From: Elusimicrobiota bacterium
GTDB taxonomy: Bacteria; Elusimicrobiota; Elusimicrobia; F11
Direction of reading: 5' to 3'
DNA length: 64,000 nt
Assembly: GCA_022072025.1 (NCBI GenBank)
Contig: JAJVIP010000010.1
Span: forward strand, 178,050-242,049
Below the pieces are notes generated by a model that saw only the letters and a list, made by a program, of their open reading frames with translations, had not been told where the DNA came from and ran no database searches. Shown one piece after another: positions 21,843-37,864 of this stretch. Positions within the stretch are counted from its first letter, which is position 1. Every line of letters begins with the position of its first letter. Both the position numbers and the translations under genes were made by a program.

Positions 21843-21912
21843 CCCACGAAAACAGGAATCCAGCTTCTTAACCCGAATAATTCAGTTGAATGGCCATTAC
21901 CGTCTATCAACA

Positions 21913-22050
21913 GTGAATATTTTTGTGCCGTCATCCCGGCATGTTTTCTGGCCGGGATCCAGGTTTTCTTCATGGGGAAAACCTGGGCCCCGGCCAAAAG
22001 ATTGCCGGGGCGACGATTCAACTGAATCATTCCGGTTAAAATCATGAATG
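21913..22050. repeat. Palindromic repeat element, family A copy 2 (full length, nested hairpins) in the argH-TolC spacer
   Basis: gtgaatattttt...gtcatcccggc-atgttttct-ggccgggatccaggtttt-cttcatgggg-aaaacctgggccccggcc-aaaagatt-gccggggcgac-gattcaactgaatcattccggttaaaatcatgaat; ~90% identical to 34897-35030. Confidence 0.6.
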
Positions 22051-30597: not shown

Positions 30598-30697
30598 GGC
30601 TCCACACGACGGAGCCACTTTTCCGGGGCTTGTATCCCCGGAAAAGTACCGCGGTAAGGTAACCCCGGACTTACGTCCGGGCTTTGGCCGCAGTAAA
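30598..30697. repeat. Palindromic repeat element, family B copy 2 (three consecutive hairpins), in the gspE/HK divergent spacer
   Basis: ggctcc-acacgac-ggagcc; acttttccgggg-cttgtat-ccccggaaaagt; ccccggac-ttac-gtccggg. First hairpin differs in sequence but keeps its pairing relative to copy 1 (compensatory). Confidence 0.6.
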
Positions 30698-30721: not shown

Positions 30722-30750
30722 TTGACAATAATTCAATCCCCAGTTCTAAT
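30722..30750 (+). promoter_or_regulatory. Candidate sigma70-type promoter for the HK/RR operon
   Basis: TTGACA at 30722-30727, 17-nt spacer, TCTAAT at 30745-30750, about 22 nt upstream of ATG 30773. Judged by consensus match only. Confidence 0.35.
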
Positions 30751-30772
30751 TTGTGTAAGATTCACCCCTTTT

Positions 30773-32263
30773 ATGGCGACCAAACGAATGCCGCTCAAAT
30801 TGAAATTGGCCTTTTTTTCCACTTTGTTGGTGGTATTTGTCGCTGTGAGTTTGAGCACATTCATTCGCCAAGGCCAAAAAAAAGCCATTGTTGAAACCCA
30901 AAAAACGGCACGATTAGACACGGTGAAAGCGTTGAGACAAGTGGCCCGGGAAGCCATCCTGGTGGATGATGACACGGGTCTCGTCAATTACGTGAATTTG
31001 CTTCAAAAGTCTCTTACCACGGCCCATGCGATGGTCATTGATGAACAGGGACGCATCCGCGTCCACACCGACCCCACCCTGATTGGAACCAAAGTGGATG
31101 ACCCCGCCTCACTAAAAGCCCTCGAAAGCCGCGATCGGCAAGACGTTGTTGTTCAGAATCTCACCTCTCCTGACGGGAAAAACATACTGGATTATTCCAT
31201 CCCCATCCTGCTCGGGCAAAATCCGGCCGAATACAGAGGCGTGGCGCGCATTGGGTTCGACAAAAACGTGATTGACGAAGAAATTCAAGAATCCCTTCGC
31301 ATTATGGACCAACGGATCAAAGGGGCCTTCTTTTTGGCTTTAATTCTGGGAATTGTCGGGGCCTTTTTACTGGCCACCTTCATCACGAAACCCATCGAAA
31401 CCCTGCGAACCGGCGCCCAACAAATTGGAGAAGGAAAATTGAGTCATCGAATCGAAGTCCACACGAACGATGAACTGCGCGAACTGGCCGATGACTTCAA
31501 CGCGATGGCCAAAAAACTGGGCGAACTCGATGAAATGAAACAAGATTTCGTATCCAACGTGACCCATGAACTCAGGTCTCCCATGACCTCCATTCGCGGA
31601 TACGTCGATCTTCTGCTTCAAGGAGCTCCAAGCTCCCTTTCTCAAACCCAAAAAGATTATCTGTCCGTCATTAAAAACAGCGCCGTTCGTTTGGGTCGGT
31701 TCATCGACAACTTGTTGGATGTCGCCAAAATTGAGGCCAACAAACTGAACCTGACCCCTGAATCCCTCTCTCTTCACGAACTGGGTTATGAAATGACCGT
31801 CCTTTTCAAGCCGCAACTGGATGAAAAAGGGATAGTTCTTAAAAATCTCATCCCGAAAGAAATGCCTCCCGCCTTTGTTGACAAGGACAAACTCGCCGAG
31901 GTGTTTATCAACTTGACCTCGAACGCCATCAAATTCACCCCTGAAAAAGGGACCATTGAATTCCAAGCCGCGGAAGGAGAAAAACATTTGGAAGTACGCG
32001 TTCAAGACAATGGCCCTGGAATTCCAGAGGACAAAGCTGCCAAACTGTTCAATAAGTTTGAACAGGTGAAGTCGAATCAAGGATTGGCGCGCAAACACAA
32101 AGGCACCGGATTGGGCCTGACCATCGCCAAAGGCATCATTGAGGCCCATGGGGGAAAAATATGGATCAAAAGCCCCGGACCTCATGGCGTGGGAACCGCG
32201 TTCTATTTTTCTGTTCCAAAACTGACCGCTGAATTAAAAGAGAGGCTTGCGAATGACATTTGA
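30773..32263 (+). CDS. Sensor histidine kinase (TM sensor, HAMP, HisKA, HATPase_c)
   Basis: Track start 30722 is a TTG inside a promoter-like sequence, so ATG 30773 is preferred. Two TM segments, HAMP, H-box VTHELRSPMTSIRGY, N/G1/G2 boxes (NAIKFT, DNGPGI, GTGLGL). Confidence 0.85.
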   Translation: MATKRMPLKLKLAFFSTLLVVFVAVSLSTFIRQGQKKAIVETQKTARLDTVKALRQVAREAILVDDDTGLVNYVNLLQKSLTTAHAMVIDEQGRIRVHTDPTLIGTKVDDPASLKALESRDRQDVVVQNLTSPDGKNILDYSIPILLGQNPAEYRGVARIGFDKNVIDEEIQESLRIMDQRIKGAFFLALILGIVGAFLLATFITKPIETLRTGAQQIGEGKLSHRIEVHTNDELRELADDFNAMAKKLGELDEMKQDFVSNVTHELRSPMTSIRGYVDLLLQGAPSSLSQTQKDYLSVIKNSAVRLGRFIDNLLDVAKIEANKLNLTPESLSLHELGYEMTVLFKPQLDEKGIVLKNLIPKEMPPAFVDKDKLAEVFINLTSNAIKFTPEKGTIEFQAAEGEKHLEVRVQDNGPGIPEDKAAKLFNKFEQVKSNQGLARKHKGTGLGLTIAKGIIEAHGGKIWIKSPGPHGVGTAFYFSVPKLTAELKERLANDI

Positions 32264-32948
32264 AATCAAGAGGAAGATTCTCGTCGTCGATGATGATCCC
32301 GATATCCGCCGCCTTGTAGAAACCGTTTTGGAACGTGATGGGTTCAGTGTTCAATCAGCCTCCTCTGCCGCCGAATTCTTTAAAACTCTGGCCGCCTTTA
32401 AGCCTGACTTGGTCGTTCTGGATCTTCAATTGCCCGACATGGATGGGTTTGGAATCATCAAGAAACTTCGGGCCGACCCGATGACGCTTCATTTGCCGGT
32501 GGTGATGCTTACGGTGCAATCCATCGACTCCTATAAAATCGCGGGGCTTGAAATTGGCGCCGACGATTACATCGTCAAACCCTTCAACCATGGCGAGTTT
32601 GTGGCGCGCATCAAAGCGCTTTTAAGACGTTCCAAACCCAAAGATCCTTCCCACGGTATTGTTGAAGCCTCCGGAATCCGGTTGAACCTCGATCAACATC
32701 GAGTCGAGATTGATAACAAGGTTGTGGATCTTTCTCCAAAAGAATTTGATTTATTGGCCGCCCTCATGCGCGCCAAAAACACGGTGCTCACGCGCGAGAC
32801 GCTCTGCGAATCCGTCTGGGGCCATGAACTGGTCGGCAACACGCGCACCGTGGACGTTCATGTGGGAAGACTCCGCCGGAAGTTGGGCGCCCACGAGAAA
32901 AAAATTGAAACAGTCGAACGCATCGGCTACCGCTTTTTGGCGGAATAA
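32253..32948 (+). CDS. OmpR-family response regulator (REC + winged-helix)
   Basis: Start moved to ATG 32253 with AGAGG RBS (track TTG 32247); receiver with VVDDD, D at LDLQLPDMDG, K at YIVKPF; C-terminal trans_reg_C. Confidence 0.85.
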   Translation: MTFEIKRKILVVDDDPDIRRLVETVLERDGFSVQSASSAAEFFKTLAAFKPDLVVLDLQLPDMDGFGIIKKLRADPMTLHLPVVMLTVQSIDSYKIAGLEIGADDYIVKPFNHGEFVARIKALLRRSKPKDPSHGIVEASGIRLNLDQHRVEIDNKVVDLSPKEFDLLAALMRAKNTVLTRETLCESVWGHELVGNTRTVDVHVGRLRRKLGAHEKKIETVERIGYRFLAE

Positions 32949-33020
32949 CCCCATTCGATCGCTCCAAATGATGACGCATCAGTTTCCTGTTTTTCCACGA
33001 ATAAATTTTCGGATTGCATT

Positions 33021-33047
33021 CCTCCCCACGCCGTACAGTGGGGAGGT
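33021..33047 (+). terminator. GC-rich hairpin downstream of the response regulator (possible terminator lacking U-tract)
   Basis: cctccccac-gccgtacag-gtggggagg: 9-bp perfect stem, 9-nt loop, 73 nt after the RR stop; no T-run follows. Confidence 0.3.
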
Positions 33048-33196
33048 TGGGAGGGGCAACAAGTGGGGACTCTATAGTTTTTTCAAGGCGACCCTCCTCG
33101 TCGCCTGCCGGGACATCGACAGAGCAATGTCACGTTATTTCCTGCGGTTGTCTTAGGCGTTCCATTAACAGAACGAATTCTTTATAATCCCGTTCT

Positions 33197-34519
33197 ATGA
33201 AGAGTACGGAAGATACCCGATACAGTCTAAGAATTCTATTGGCAGAATCTCATGAGAAAACCTGGCCATCCTTAATCAAACGCGATTTCAATTGGGATTT
33301 GCTGAGTTCCACGCGATTACTCACCTTGGTTGGACCGCGTCGTGCAGGAAAAACTTTTCTGTGTTACCAAATCCTACGCCACCTACTGGACCAAGGGACC
33401 CCACGCCACCGTTTGCTCTATCTCAATTTTGAAGATGAAAGGCTTTATCCCATGTCTGGTCAGGAGCTCACTCTTTTATTGGATGTGTACGAAGAACTCT
33501 TTCCTTGGAAATCAGCGGACCCTCTCTATGTGGTTCTAGACGAGATTCAGAACGTGCCGCAGTGGTCGAGATGGGCCCGGCGGGTACATGAACAGCATCC
33601 CAAGCTTCATTTAATTCTGACCGGATCTTCCTCAAAATTGCTTTCAACTGAGCTGGCCACAGAACTGCGCGGACGAACTTTGGGTTTCTCCGTCTATCCC
33701 TATTCATTCAGTGAGAGACTTCGCGCGGAGGGCGAGGATAACGCCGTATCATCTCTCATGCTTCATGGCCGGGGAAAAAATCGTATGAGACGGTCATTTG
33801 ATCAATTTCTGCTTAAAGGAGGATTTCCAGAACCGTGCCTGCAAGAAAATCCACAACCTGTTTTGCAGTCTTACTATCAAACGATGTTCATGAGAGATCT
33901 GGTTGAACGATATCGAATTAACAACGTGCCTTTATTTGAGGATTTTCTCAAAGTGGCCATCAGCCGTTTCGGATCTCTTTTTTCGGTTTCAGCGCTCCAC
34001 AAAGAACTCGAAGCGCGACATGGCCGAGTGAGCAAAGCGACGCTTGTTCAATACACGCGCTACGCGCGCGAGGTATTTCTTCTCTTCGAACTTCACCGTT
34101 TTGACTTCAAAATAAGGCGCCAACTGTTGCACCCTCGAAAGCTCTATGGCGTGGACGTGGGCCTTTTGAATGCTATTCGCTTTTCCTCCACAGAGGATCG
34201 AGGAAGACTTCTGGAAAACGCGGTTTATCTCGAGCTGCTCCGGCGACCCGCCGAGCTTTATTTTTGGCGACAGGAAGCCGAGTGTGATTTCCTAATAAAA
34301 GAGGGGAAAAAAGTAACGCAAGCCATTCAAGTATCTTGGTCGGTGGAAAAACCTGAAACCCGGGAACGGGAGTTAAGAGGGCTTCTAGAGGCAACCACCC
34401 AGTTTCATTTGAAAGAAGGACTCATTTTAACGGCCGGAGAAACAGCTGATTTCAAACGAGAACACTGCCGTATTCGAGTTCGACCTTTTTGGTACTGGGC
34501 TATAGGAGGGCAAAATTAA
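33197..34519 (+). CDS. AAA+ ATPase of the COG1373 / DUF4143 family
   Basis: 440 aa; Walker A GPRRAGKT, Walker B VVLDEIQ, DUF4143-like C-terminal region; TATAAT at 33183-33188 just upstream of the ATG suggests a short or absent leader. Confidence 0.75.
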   Translation: MKSTEDTRYSLRILLAESHEKTWPSLIKRDFNWDLLSSTRLLTLVGPRRAGKTFLCYQILRHLLDQGTPRHRLLYLNFEDERLYPMSGQELTLLLDVYEELFPWKSADPLYVVLDEIQNVPQWSRWARRVHEQHPKLHLILTGSSSKLLSTELATELRGRTLGFSVYPYSFSERLRAEGEDNAVSSLMLHGRGKNRMRRSFDQFLLKGGFPEPCLQENPQPVLQSYYQTMFMRDLVERYRINNVPLFEDFLKVAISRFGSLFSVSALHKELEARHGRVSKATLVQYTRYAREVFLLFELHRFDFKIRRQLLHPRKLYGVDVGLLNAIRFSSTEDRGRLLENAVYLELLRRPAELYFWRQEAECDFLIKEGKKVTQAIQVSWSVEKPETRERELRGLLEATTQFHLKEGLILTAGETADFKREHCRIRVRPFWYWAIGGQN

Positions 34520-34535
34520 CCCCAGTGCTTGCCGG

Positions 34536-36110
34536 TTAGGCCGCGGAGAGAAGGGCGCGGCGCTGAAGTCCCCAATCCTCTAGCTGAAGAATTTTAGAAA
34601 GGCCCTCCAACGATTCAAACAAGATTTTCAATAAAGTTTGATCCTTCGACTGGATCGTCACGGCGCGAGAGTGAATAAAGGCCAGTTGAGCCAGACTCAG
34701 ATTGTTTTGTTGAGCGAAACCCTCCGCCCGAAAGACCTTCTTTCCTTCTTTCGTATTCTCAAACCATGAGGCTCGCGCCATACTTGCACTATCCGCGTCG
34801 TCCTGGACACGAATATCCATATTTCGATTTTGAAACTCGCGGATGACACTCATTATTCTGGAATTTTCAGTTGAACGACCATTATCGCCTGTTGACGGTG
34901 AATCTTTTAGAGTCGTCATCCCGGCATGCTTCCTGGCCGGGATCCAGGTTTTTTCCTCAGAGAAAACCTGGGCCCCGGCCAAAAGATTGCCGGGGCGACG
35001 ATTTATCTGAATATTTCCGGTTAATGAATCGCTCAAGCCCCCTTCGCCTTCCACAACAACCCTCACCTCTTGTTGGAAGTGGAAAGCCACCACCAACGCC
35101 GACTTCAATTGATCTCTCATGGATTTGGGATTTTCCATCATCGACCGGTCCACCACAAGGACGCTGATTTTTCGAGTTAACAGCCCCCGCAACAACTCAA
35201 GATCCTGCGGTTTCTCGCCGGCCAACGCCAGTATTCCCACCACCAACTCCTTGTCTTTCTCCCGAATGTTGATCCCCTGTAAAACGTTGTGAAAGCCTGC
35301 TTGAAAATCACGGTTCGCAACAAGCTGGCTCAGTTGTAGGGGCGACGTCTCCAAGCCCCTCCCTTTTTTCCCGGATACGTCCGAAACCCGAATCCCCTCG
35401 CCAACCAAGGTCCATTGCACCGCTTGGCCAGGTTCTTGTTGGATCAGCGCCTTCACAATTTTCCCCAACCGCTGGCCGGCCAGATAAGAAGGGGGGAGAG
35501 AAGTCAGAAACGGCGCCGTGGCGATGGCAGTACGGTCTGGGCGGCGATCATTCCAGTCTTTGTGGAAAATCCAAAAATAATAGAGCTGGAAAAACACCAG
35601 GCCAACAACCGCGCTCCCCATCAACCACGCGCCGACAGCTCCGCTCAGCAATGAGTTCCAAAGTAAGAGAAGAACCCAGGAAGCCAAAACCCCCGGAGAA
35701 TGGAATTTCAGAGAGCCCATAAAAATTTCGATGCGATCCAAGGGCGTGGCGTGGTCAAGCCGATAGACCCACCCCTTGTTTTCCAGACTTTTAATCACCA
35801 CTTGATTCCAGTGCGGCAACAAGAACAAAATATTGACCCCCACATGAATGACCAAAGCCATCACGGCCGCGGAACTCGCCTCCAGACCGATGAGATCCCC
35901 CTCCGAAGTCGCTTTAATGAACAAAAGCCAAATCGCGATCACATTGGCCATCGTGTACATCATCGTGGCAATCAACACTTCCTTCTTTAAGGCCTCTTTA
36001 ACACTCTCAGGGTTGACCTTCCTTTCATCATTGACCTCCACCAACGACGGCCACATGGCTTGAGGAGAAGAACTTTCTTTTCCGTTTTTATTATATGTTG
36101 TATTAAACAA
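34536..36110 (-). CDS. Multi-pass membrane protein of unknown function with in-frame repeat-element A insertion (possible ATG start at 36056)
   Basis: Track start is a TTG at 36110; ATG at 36056 (MWPSL...) is an alternative. Several hydrophobic helices in the N-terminal 200 aa; the family A element at 34897-35030 is read through in-frame (...NRRPGNLLAGAQVF..KTWIPARKHAGMT...). Confidence 0.5.
   Translation of the reverse strand: MFNTTYNKNGKESSSPQAMWPSLVEVNDERKVNPESVKEALKKEVLIATMMYTMANVIAIWLLFIKATSEGDLIGLEASSAAVMALVIHVGVNILFLLPHWNQVVIKSLENKGWVYRLDHATPLDRIEIFMGSLKFHSPGVLASWVLLLLWNSLLSGAVGAWLMGSAVVGLVFFQLYYFWIFHKDWNDRRPDRTAIATAPFLTSLPPSYLAGQRLGKIVKALIQQEPGQAVQWTLVGEGIRVSDVSGKKGRGLETSPLQLSQLVANRDFQAGFHNVLQGINIREKDKELVVGILALAGEKPQDLELLRGLLTRKISVLVVDRSMMENPKSMRDQLKSALVVAFHFQQEVRVVVEGEGGLSDSLTGNIQINRRPGNLLAGAQVFSEEKTWIPARKHAGMTTLKDSPSTGDNGRSTENSRIMSVIREFQNRNMDIRVQDDADSASMARASWFENTKEGKKVFRAEGFAQQNNLSLAQLAFIHSRAVTIQSKDQTLLKILFESLEGLSKILQLEDWGLQRRALLSAA
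34897..35030. repeat. Palindromic repeat element, family A copy 3, inside the 34536-36110 CDS
   Basis: ~90% identical to 21913-22050 including flanking gtgaat...tgaat motifs; 134 bp; no stop codons in the host frame. Confidence 0.6.
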
Positions 36111-36122
36111 TAATATAGGTTA

Positions 36123-37379
36123 TTGTTTTTTACCATGAAATCACTATACACCACTATTGAAGCCCATAAGAGAGAGAGAGATTTGGCGCTTCGCCGGACT
36201 CTCGTCCCCCGCCATATGAGCGCCGCCCTTTCGAAAGCGCTTTCTTCCCCTCTGGTGAAAGTCATTACAGGACCCCGCCGGGCCGGGAAGTCCACCTTGG
36301 CTTTTCAGACTCTTTCTGGGAAAAATTTCGCCTATCTCAATTTCGAAGATGATGCGCTGAAAAGCGATGTCACCAGCGACGAGCTGATCGAAGCCATGGA
36401 TGAGGTGTACGGAAAAGCCGAATATGTCTTCTTTGATGAAATTCAGAACTATCCTCAATGGGAAAGCTTCATCAACAAATTACACCGCCGTGAGCACAAC
36501 CTGGTCATTACCGGCTCAAATTCAAGGCTCCTGAGTCGAGAATTGGGATCGGCTCTCACGGGCCGGCATCTTTCTTTCGAGTTATTGCCTTTTAGTTATC
36601 AAGAGTTTTTGGCTGCGCTTTCAAATAACACAAGCAATGACATGAAAAATTTTCACCGGTACTTAACATGGGGCGGTTTTCCCGAAGTTGTTCTTGGGAA
36701 TTCCGAACCGCACGGATACTTGCGCACTCTTTTTGATTCGGTCGTCCTGCGCGATATTGTGACCCGTCACCACATCCGTTCCTCATTGGCTATTCATGAT
36801 CTGCTGAACCTTCTCATCAATAACGCAACAAGCCGGTTTTCAGCGCGAAGCCTGGAACGATCCTTGGGCTCACTCTCCATCGCCACCGTTCAGAAATTCA
36901 TTGCCTATTTTCGTGAGGCCTATTTGGTCCATGACCTTCAACCGTACTTCTTCAAGCCGCGGTTGAGAATCAAGGCAGACCGCAAAATCTATGCCTATGA
37001 CAATGGCTTGATTTCCGCCGTCTCACAGCCCACCACCTCAAATCAATCGCGGCTGCTTGAGAACCTGGTTTTTATTGAACTCGTGCGGCGCGGATTCAAA
37101 CCAAATCTCGATTTATTCTATTACCAAACTCGATCCGGCAACGAAGTGGATTTCTTGGTTCGGAATGGATCAAAGAACATTGAGCTCATTCAAGTGACGC
37201 AAAACCTTGCCGCCTTAAAAACCCGTGAACGAGAGCTTCGCTCCCTTCATCAGGCGTCAGAAGAACTCAATGTCTCCAAACTCACCATCCTCACCATGGA
37301 TACGGAAGAAACAATCAAAGAAAGCGGGATTCGAATTCGCGTGATCCCATGCCAGAAATGGCTGTTAGAAAAAATCTGA
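36123..37379 (+). CDS. AAA+ ATPase of the COG1373 / DUF4143 family (paralog of 33197-34519)
   Basis: 418 aa; Walker A GPRRAGKST, Walker B VFFDEIQN, same architecture as the other copy; divergent from the membrane-protein gene with a short AT-rich spacer. Confidence 0.75.
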   Translation: MFFTMKSLYTTIEAHKRERDLALRRTLVPRHMSAALSKALSSPLVKVITGPRRAGKSTLAFQTLSGKNFAYLNFEDDALKSDVTSDELIEAMDEVYGKAEYVFFDEIQNYPQWESFINKLHRREHNLVITGSNSRLLSRELGSALTGRHLSFELLPFSYQEFLAALSNNTSNDMKNFHRYLTWGGFPEVVLGNSEPHGYLRTLFDSVVLRDIVTRHHIRSSLAIHDLLNLLINNATSRFSARSLERSLGSLSIATVQKFIAYFREAYLVHDLQPYFFKPRLRIKADRKIYAYDNGLISAVSQPTTSNQSRLLENLVFIELVRRGFKPNLDLFYYQTRSGNEVDFLVRNGSKNIELIQVTQNLAALKTRERELRSLHQASEELNVSKLTILTMDTEETIKESGIRIRVIPCQKWLLEKI

Positions 37380-37492: not shown

Positions 37493-37864
37493 TTAGCGGA
37501 GTTTTTCGTAACTTTTTTGACTTCCGTATTGGAGACATAAATTCCGGAAGGAATCTGATTCAATGTCGATGTTGTTTTCCTTGATCAGCGCCGCAATATC
37601 CAGCAAATCTTTTAATTCCCGTCTTTCCGGATTTTGTTTGATGGCATGCAACTTCATTGCGATAAGATGATCTAAGCTTGGGACAATAAAAGGCTCTCCT
37701 GAAATCGTGATTTCCTGGCCATCCCTGATGACGGCTTTTAAGGTTTCTTCATCAGTGAACAAGAAATCGATGTCTTTCGTCTCCCGAGAAAATTTGTAGT
37801 GATTCACAGCAAATCCGCCGATCAAAACACTCGGTAAATTTTTTTCACGAAAGAGCCGCCCCAA
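37493..37864 (-). CDS. Small nucleotidyltransferase-fold-like protein (AbiEii/MNT-like motif); candidate immunity or accessory gene of the giant ORF
   Basis: 123 aa, TTG start 22 nt after the giant-ORF stop, same strand; LIGGFAVNHYKFSRETKDIDFLF resembles the GG..A......R.T.DIDF nucleotidyltransferase motif. Confidence 0.45.
   Translation of the reverse strand: MGRLFREKNLPSVLIGGFAVNHYKFSRETKDIDFLFTDEETLKAVIRDGQEITISGEPFIVPSLDHLIAMKLHAIKQNPERRELKDLLDIAALIKENNIDIESDSFRNLCLQYGSQKSYEKLR

Follow-up and report, generated by a model that had tools for sequence, protein, structure and literature searches.

PDC-S01 is a single-gene candidate defence system in which an ATPase is fused to a domain of the PD-(D/E)XK superfamily; about 29,500 examples in bacteria and 10,000 in archaea place it fourth in abundance among the defence candidates of prokaryotes, and it is as yet unvalidated (PMC12988326). 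The corresponding DUF4143/COG1373 family appears in a census of the PD-(D/E)XK superfamily as one of unknown function (PMC3424549), and COG1373 is listed among the genes co-shared between genera in a screen for horizontal transfer (PMC10782964). In the papers searched for DUF4143, PDC-S01 and COG1373 we found no family mechanism, and no paper describing the dyads, leaderless arrangement or cassette boundaries considered here. Our subject is a pair of genes, for ATPase1 and ATPase2, which lie on either side of an opposite-strand gene for a membrane protein (the middle gene) and beside a giant open reading frame (ORF) in a 64,000-nucleotide (nt) stretch of DNA from an Elusimicrobiota bacterium (contig JAJVIP010000010.1), hereafter the window. 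We think it probable that these are two independently acquired, self-contained PDC-S01 cassettes, each with its own palindrome-overlapped promoter, which flank a native membrane-protein gene and whose proximity is incidental.

Two PDC-S01 proteins and their described relatives

Both window proteins have the same single-gene ATPase and PD-(D/E)XK-superfamily architecture as PDC-S01, and we see no structural difference from it. They match the Pfam families AAA_14 (PF13173; 114.6 bits for ATPase1 and 117.6 for ATPase2, against a gathering cut-off of 27) and DUF4143 (PF13635; 88.7 and 88.5 bits, cut-off 28.1), together with the PADLOC model for PDC-S01, PDLC04787 (E 1.1e-103 over residues 35-436 of ATPase1 and 6.4e-107 over residues 24-416 of ATPase2), which bears out the initial annotation of both as COG1373/DUF4143 AAA ATPases. 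No validated defence system in the PADLOC library matched either protein, no NCBIfam model was found for them and a sequence search of the PDB gave no match. The Walker A and Walker B boxes quoted initially are present in both translations (GPRRAGKS and VFFDEIQN in ATPase2; for ATPase1 see Table 1) and fall in invariant columns of the family. All 36 columns that are invariant in an alignment of 39 members are kept in both proteins.

The ATPases do not look like ordinary insertion-sequence genes. A role as IstB-like helper found no support, neither protein having an IstB or insertion-sequence-type Pfam match, and Pfam found no transposase on the middle gene, the nucleotidyltransferase-like ORF or the giant ORF; for the kinase and regulator genes the precomputed Pfam matches are to sensor-kinase and regulator domains, and the block was scanned only in part for transposases. 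Around relatives of the ATPases (loci carry L numbers below) no transposase gene is listed in L002-L008 or L046-L048, and in L009 there is an rve fragment at a distance of about 3.5 kb.

From an AlphaFold model of ATPase1 for which 39 homologues were used (predicted local distance difference test score, pLDDT, 92), these proteins seem to be made up of an ORC/Cdc6-STAND-type P-loop NTPase, a winged helix and, at the C-terminus, a PD-(D/E)XK-like domain. In the model, residues 335-435 have the layout of a PD-(D/E)XK core, within which E340, E362 and Q378 are invariant in the family and D364 is nearly so. Fold comparison gave figures of about 16 for the archaeal Walker-type ATPases SSO1545 (PDB 2fna) and PAB2304 (PDB 2qen), 10-15 for STAND proteins (NB-ARC resistosomes, CED-4 and Avs3/4/5) and about 10-11 for Cdc6/ORC and clamp-loader subunits.

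The NTPase-helical-winged-helix core of the STAND immune proteins is present in the window ATPases, but they differ from those proteins in lacking a large repeat sensor (TPR, LRR or WD40) and in carrying their effector-like domain at the C-terminus. They are only about 420-440 residues long, the protein ends some 100 residues after the winged helix, and neither a Pfam repeat domain nor an above-threshold STAND family was found. Archaeal Orc1/Cdc6 initiators bind inverted-repeat origin boxes beside their own gene. The window proteins depart from these initiators in having an extra nuclease-like domain and in occurring as single cassettes across a variety of chromosomal settings; neither an AT-rich unwinding element nor replication genes lie nearby, and the window dyads overlap a promoter and start codon. 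Autorepressed toxin-antitoxin and defence cassettes offer a likeness of arrangement, in that palindromes lie over the -35/-10 region and the start, the operator diverges with the protein, and the cassettes are multi-copy and horizontally mobile. The window cassette differs in being a single polypeptide in which no toxin or antitoxin domains were detected, and its regulation is a prediction. The locus holds two new but ordinary representatives of a family that is very common and whose function is unproven; what appears to be new is the combination of clade-specific promoter dyads and predicted leaderless cassettes as a regulatory feature that may be family-wide.

Separate origins and promoter dyads of the two cassettes

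ATPase1 and ATPase2 are 34% identical over about 400 residues (E 2e-67) and so are paralogous, as was first noted, but they are not each other's closest relatives. The closest outside relatives of ATPase1 are 55-56% identical and come from other phyla; its top 120 matches (41-56%) include Chitinispirillaceae, Smithella, Parcubacteria, Saganbacteria and Omnitrophica but not ATPase2, at 34%. The clade of ATPase2 spans at least seven phyla, with identities of up to 88% in metagenome contigs and of 64-85% in species-representative genomes (Acidobacteriota, Elusimicrobia, Deltaproteobacteria, Nitrospira, Betaproteobacteria, Planctomycetota and Omnitrophica). This ranking rules out a local duplication, and the description of the two genes as a duplicated pair has to be given up. 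At the nucleotide level, ATPase2 resembles its relatives (66-80%, blastn) only between about 36084-36098 and the stop codon at 37379, a stretch that takes in the gene and about 40-50 nt upstream of its ATG. The G+C content at third codon positions is 0.46 in ATPase1, 0.54 in ATPase2, 0.60 in the middle gene and 0.53-0.59 in reference genes, with ATPase1 as the only outlier and ATPase2 inside the reference range. More widely, the ATPase family is found on 502 of 72,556 plasmids, mobilizable and conjugative ones included, and is rare in phage records. On these comparisons the two copies are of independent origin and the cassette boundaries are sharply drawn; two separate acquisitions of single-gene cassettes would be the simplest history.

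Every member of the ATPase2 clade with enough upstream DNA carries the dyad TTGTATTAAACAATA-N8-TATTGTTTAATAC directly before its ATG, the window version being TTGTATTAAACAATA-N8-TATTGTTTTTTACC (Table 1). The invariant 15-mer that forms this dyad occurs exactly upstream of an ATPase2-type gene in 15 loci from several phyla, the DNA farther upstream being unrelated. The arms hold a -35-like TTGTAT and a -10-like TATTGT with 17-nt spacing, 8 nt before the ATG. An ATPase2-type start stands at one fixed position after the conserved dyad in 18 of the 19 clade loci compared (as GTG in one), with L023 offset. The ATPase2 gene starts at ATG 36135 (414 residues) and not at TTG 36123 (418 residues), so that of the two protein lengths first given, 440 stands and 418 does not. 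The 66-nt AT-rich spacer at 36057-36122 had been viewed as a promoter shared divergently with the membrane-protein gene. This is partly right: since the right part (36098-36134) belongs to the ATPase2 cassette, only 36057-36097 is left for the membrane-protein gene, and here a minus-strand TATAAT (36090-36095) could serve it.

Upstream of ATPase1 a single geometry is found in all ten loci of its clade, the window included: a dyad (O1) centred near -30, a TATAWT hexamer and a second dyad (O2) with arms at -7 to -1 and +7 to +13. The hexamer lies 6 nt before the ATG in nine of these loci and 8 nt before it in the window, a spacing that argues for transcription from the ATG itself and favours the earlier suggestion of a leaderless or very short-leader transcript. 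O1 and O2 centres are 33 bp apart in the three loci measured (the window, L002 and L004 at 10001), and O2 is at least 6/7 complementary in 10/10 loci compared with 0-1 loci in slid-register controls. The half-site is CGTTC in the window, GTCCT in L002, TGTATT in five loci, TGTCTT in one and TGTAG in two. Within a locus O1 and O2 carry the same half-site; between loci the half-site differs and the arms stay complementary. Half-site type follows the residue type of the candidate recognition helix, a pattern confounded by phylogeny.

Such elements extend beyond these two clades. A perfect inverted repeat of at least 8 nt was found in 52% of 88 non-identical upstream regions, set against 4.4% in dinucleotide shuffles and 6% in internal coding sequence, and in some subclades a dyad lies between a textbook TTGACA and a -10 box, with a Shine-Dalgarno leader. 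Palindromes that sit on a promoter or start codon with fixed geometry, and whose sequence changes with the adjacent protein, are the signature of self-bound operators. As far as sequence can tell, both the conservation and the covariation of the dyads are established, as is the lack of conserved neighbours.

If the ATPase genes are cassettes of this kind, each would carry its own promoter, overlapped by palindromic sites specific to its subclade. The message would start at or within about 2 nt of the ATG and so be leaderless, and the ATPase would bind its own dyads through the winged helix, repressing its own transcription. Assembly on DNA, dependent on nucleoside triphosphate (NTP), would then control the C-terminal domain. 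Autoregulation, leaderless transcription and nuclease activity are all predictions here, as is the biological role, which would most likely lie in conflict or defence; the defence-type function first entertained for the locus agrees with the PADLOC candidate label.

A number of observations weigh against this reading. The O1 arms of the window ATPase1 are only 5 nt long, weaker than the dyads of its relatives, and the right arm of the ATPase2 dyad is degenerate, with three mismatches, both in the window and in the three closest relatives (L046-L048). The upstream regions counted above are phylogenetically related, so those counts are not independent. A scan with the sigma-70 consensus called neither proposed promoter and found no acceptable -35 for the ATPase1 TATAAT; its sites were no commoner than in shuffles. 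About half of this organism's genes lack a Shine-Dalgarno motif, and the absence of one at the ATPase genes therefore says little. As for the protein, the canonical ExK lysine is absent from the C-terminal domain, where the motif is Q378-V-S/T, so that nuclease activity is plausible but unproven; whole-chain fold searches returned no nuclease structure, because the ATPase part dominates such a comparison. When one PDC-S01 representative was tested in E. coli with T4, T5 or T7, it conferred no protection (bioRxiv 10.1101/2024.09.26.614923). Finally, a second, strongly divergent copy of the family lies within 10 kb in 7 of the 35 genome loci examined and is directly adjacent in 5 of them.

Layout of the locus and its neighbours

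The block of four genes containing the ATPases is flanked by a two-component system on the left and the giant ORF on the right (Table 1). Since its first three genes are convergent (ATPase1 and the middle gene) or divergent (the middle gene and ATPase2), they could not be co-transcribed. The left flank of the window consists of housekeeping and signalling genes (arginine synthesis, an outer-membrane efflux protein, GAF/HD, PilZ and a type II/IV secretion ATPase) and is not a defence island.

Table 1. Positions of genes, motifs and repeats in the window
Feature	Position	Strand	Description
Histidine kinase	30722-32263	+	two-component system, left of the block
Response regulator	32247-32948	+	two-component system
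Dyad O1, CGTTC-N8-GAACG	33158-33175	+	operator-like; centre about 30 nt before the ATG; same geometry in 9 relatives
TATAAT	33183-33188	+	-10-like; 8 nt before ATG 33197; Shine-Dalgarno motif absent
Dyad O2, CCGTTCT-ATGAAG-AGTACGG	33190-33209	+	operator-like; spans the start codon; 6/7 complementary
ATPase1	33197-34519	+	440 residues; P-loop NTPase, helical lid, winged helix, PD-(D/E)XK-like C-terminal domain (predicted)
Walker A of ATPase1, GPRRAGKT, residues 46-53	33332-33355	+	G46, R48, R49, G51 and K52 invariant in 39 family members
Walker B of ATPase1, VVLDEIQN, residues 112-119	33530-33553	+	D115 and E116 invariant
Winged-helix region of ATPase1, residues 244-318	33926-34150	+	from model secondary structure; candidate recognition helix at residues 280-292
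C-terminal alpha-beta-beta-beta-alpha-beta domain of ATPase1, residues 335-435	34199-34501	+	from model and alignment
Middle gene	34536-36056	-	506 residues; four N-terminal transmembrane segments and a soluble C-terminal part
Hairpin-forming repeat, about 165 nt	34866-35030		in frame in the middle gene; second copy at 21881-22045, about 85% match
Four hydrophobic segments	35565-35978	-	Kyte-Doolittle scan of the middle protein
ATPase2 cassette dyad/promoter	36098-36134	+	abuts ATG 36135
ATPase2	36135-37379	+	414 residues; architecture as in ATPase1
Nucleotidyltransferase-like ORF	37493-37864	-	123 residues; 22 nt downstream of the giant ORF
Giant ORF	37887-63959	-	8,690 residues; internally repetitive

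Synteny was assessed over 41 distinct loci around relatives of either ATPase, with all flanking ORFs clustered. The only cluster shared with the window neighbourhood was the ATPase family itself with its shadow frames. When the middle protein, the nucleotidyltransferase, the kinase, the regulator and the N- and C-terminal parts of the giant protein were compared with the related loci by tblastn, the only hit was to L010, the contig of the protein P0247 discussed below, and neither end of the giant protein found anything. The longest ORF is of 1,483 residues in the 35 genome loci and of 2,273 residues in one metagenome contig, and the neighbours of related ATPases range from glycosyltransferases and TonB receptors to toxin-antitoxin pairs. 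A conserved ATPase-membrane-ATPase trio beside giant genes is thus not what the related loci hold; as far as these comparisons go, the closeness of the two ATPases to each other and to the giant gene looks incidental.

Clustering of paralogues is nonetheless a habit of the family. A stretch of L004 (JGI contig Ga0598277_0000161, 1-13000) holds three AAA_14-DUF4143 genes in 13 kb, one pair being in tandem, around an HD-CE protein and a 1,170-residue KaiC/RecA-like ATPase. This block has cca on one side and the rimP-nusA-infB operon on the other, and it resembles a small island of the defence or variable kind. The longest upstream palindrome that we saw lies in the same contig, at 262-304 before a family member at 320, with perfect arms of 18 nt (AATGGCATATTTGAATCT-N5-AGATTCAAATATGCCATT).

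The middle-gene ORF (34536-36110, minus strand) encodes 524 residues from its first TTG or 506 from ATG 36056, the start used by the public annotation. Its initial description as a multi-pass membrane-protein gene with a repeat insertion holds: four hydrophobic segments fall in the first 165 or so residues of the 506-residue form. The protein has no Pfam or NCBIfam match and one marginal PADLOC match (PDC-S11, E 0.0015). A word-indexed search of 5.8 billion proteins returned only the protein itself and matches confined to the repeat-encoded stretch, and HMMER, run exhaustively against 1.84 billion representatives, yielded just two more matches apart from those to the repeat element. One, to a repetitive protein of 1,462 residues, is short and was judged spurious. 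The other, P0247, is a 192-residue fragment collinear with residues 245-333 and 428-506 of the middle protein at 31-37% identity; about 30 residues separate the aligned blocks in P0247 compared with 94 in the window protein, and P0247 therefore lacks the hairpin-repeat insert. A spurious ORF was ruled out by the host-like, in-frame codon usage, the length of more than 500 codons and the one collinear distant homologue. A single-sequence AlphaFold model was unusable (pLDDT 40). The middle gene would thus appear to be native, a lineage-specific near-orphan, which rules out a conserved trio.

The hairpin-forming repeat within this gene has a long hairpin fold (z = -5.6) and a coding score near zero, and a short-read contig (L001) ends inside it, at an assembly break. 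Its other copy in the window lies in the annotated N-terminus of the outer-membrane efflux protein. The peptide that it encodes (…NRRPGNLLAGAQVF…KTWIPARKHAGMT…) also interrupts three other proteins, a CoaBC-like one of the same genome and, elsewhere, a DUF2063 protein and a 4,451-residue protein. Two families of short palindromic repeats, CCTCCCCAC…GTGGGGAGG and ACTTTTCCGGGG…CCCCGGAAAAGT, are intergenic: the first has copies at 1760-1802 and at 33018-33060, between the response regulator and ATPase1, and the second at 2402-2432 and 30617-30647. In the intergenic regions of the locus we found no known RNAs and no tRNAs, the sole Rfam match being a sub-threshold miRNA on the hairpin repeat.

To the right, the giant ORF comprises more than a dozen units of about 235-258 residues (period 705-774 nt). 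Its only Pfam signal is one sub-threshold RHS-repeat match, and YD-like motifs can be read in the translation; an HTHGG…PTPED stretch in the last 200 or so residues looks like a metallopeptidase- or JAB-type motif. The nucleotidyltransferase-like ORF matches only parts of the AbiEii, DUF2204 and DUF6036 profiles. The AbiEii match passes the threshold at 43 bits, with its best stretch at profile positions 135-188 of 238; being partial, and with no AbiEi-like gene adjacent, it led us to reject an AbiE toxin-antitoxin system. In L046, which holds an 88%-identical relative of ATPase2, a DUF6036 protein occupies the same convergent position, but only a 25-residue motif is common to the two, too weak a likeness for a conserved neighbour. 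The exact ATPase2 protein was not returned from the 5.8-billion-protein collection (best match 88%), in which both of its same-contig neighbours were found, and its gene may have been missed in the public annotation or be flagged there as a pseudogene.

Alternative readings and what the dyads may mean

It is unlikely, to our mind, that the two divergent paralogues act as a hetero-oligomeric pair, with divergent DUF4143 pairs as the functional unit. AAA+ and STAND-type proteins work as oligomers, and the second copies found in 7 of the 35 genome loci, along with the three in L004, keep some functional pairing in play. Set against this, 80% of loci are solo, PADLOC models a single-gene candidate, and the window copies are separated by an unrelated gene on the opposite strand. 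Their clades also differ in dyad sequence, which suggests orthogonal rather than shared control, and clustering is also expected from insertion into permissive or defence-island-like spots.

The cassettes might instead be selfish and mobile, the dyad being the recognition site of their own ATP-dependent nuclease for homing-like mobility. That cross-phylum similarity sets in exactly at the dyad and does not pass the stop codon is consistent with this, as are the amino-acid identities of 73-85% across phyla, the varied genomic contexts and the place of COG1373 in the horizontal-transfer screen. However, no second end, target-site duplication or conserved downstream motif was found, the palindrome is intact rather than split by insertion, and the ATPase2 dyad motif is absent from 2.9 million viral contigs. 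Given also that, like operators, the dyads lie on -35/-10-like hexamers and the start codon, we regard mobility of this kind as quite unlikely.

We give as little credence to a role of the dyads at the RNA level, as hairpins for attenuation or for control of translation, instead of as DNA sites bound by a protein. The arms do covary with complementarity kept, the AUG of the ATPase1 clade would fall in a loop, and the four segments X, X', X, X' could permit alternative pairings. Yet the TATAWT hexamer sits between O1 and O2, so a transcript from it would include neither O1 nor the left arm of O2, and a leaderless start makes an RNA-hairpin role for the two less likely. A shared half-site in O1 and O2 at each locus would be needless for independent hairpins, the ATPase2 arms are invariant in sequence and not merely complementary, and Rfam gave no matching family.

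The proposal that the trio forms an accessory module that serves the giant protein in assembly, export, quality control or immunity draws on physical adjacency, on the proximity of a close ATPase2 relative (L007) to a 2,272-residue protein and on the convergent nucleotidyltransferase of L046, but with ATPases of separate foreign origins, one partial homologue for the middle gene and no recurring window neighbour it is largely refuted and highly improbable.

Two independently acquired cassettes under palindrome-overlapped promoters remain our preferred reading. A bolder form of it, which we hold to be doubtful, is that PDC-S01 proteins are NTP-driven nucleases that bind DNA at specific sequences, and that the sequence each one recognises is spelled out by the palindromes of its own promoter. 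Most validated defence systems are reportedly less numerous than this family, and a dyad that covaries with the protein on a predicted leaderless promoter offers a concrete handle on it. If true, co-divergence of recognition helix and operator would generate many orthogonal specificities, and these would account for genomes that hold several divergent copies, at times next to each other as in the window. What ranks fourth in abundance among defence candidates would then become a family with predictable DNA targets.

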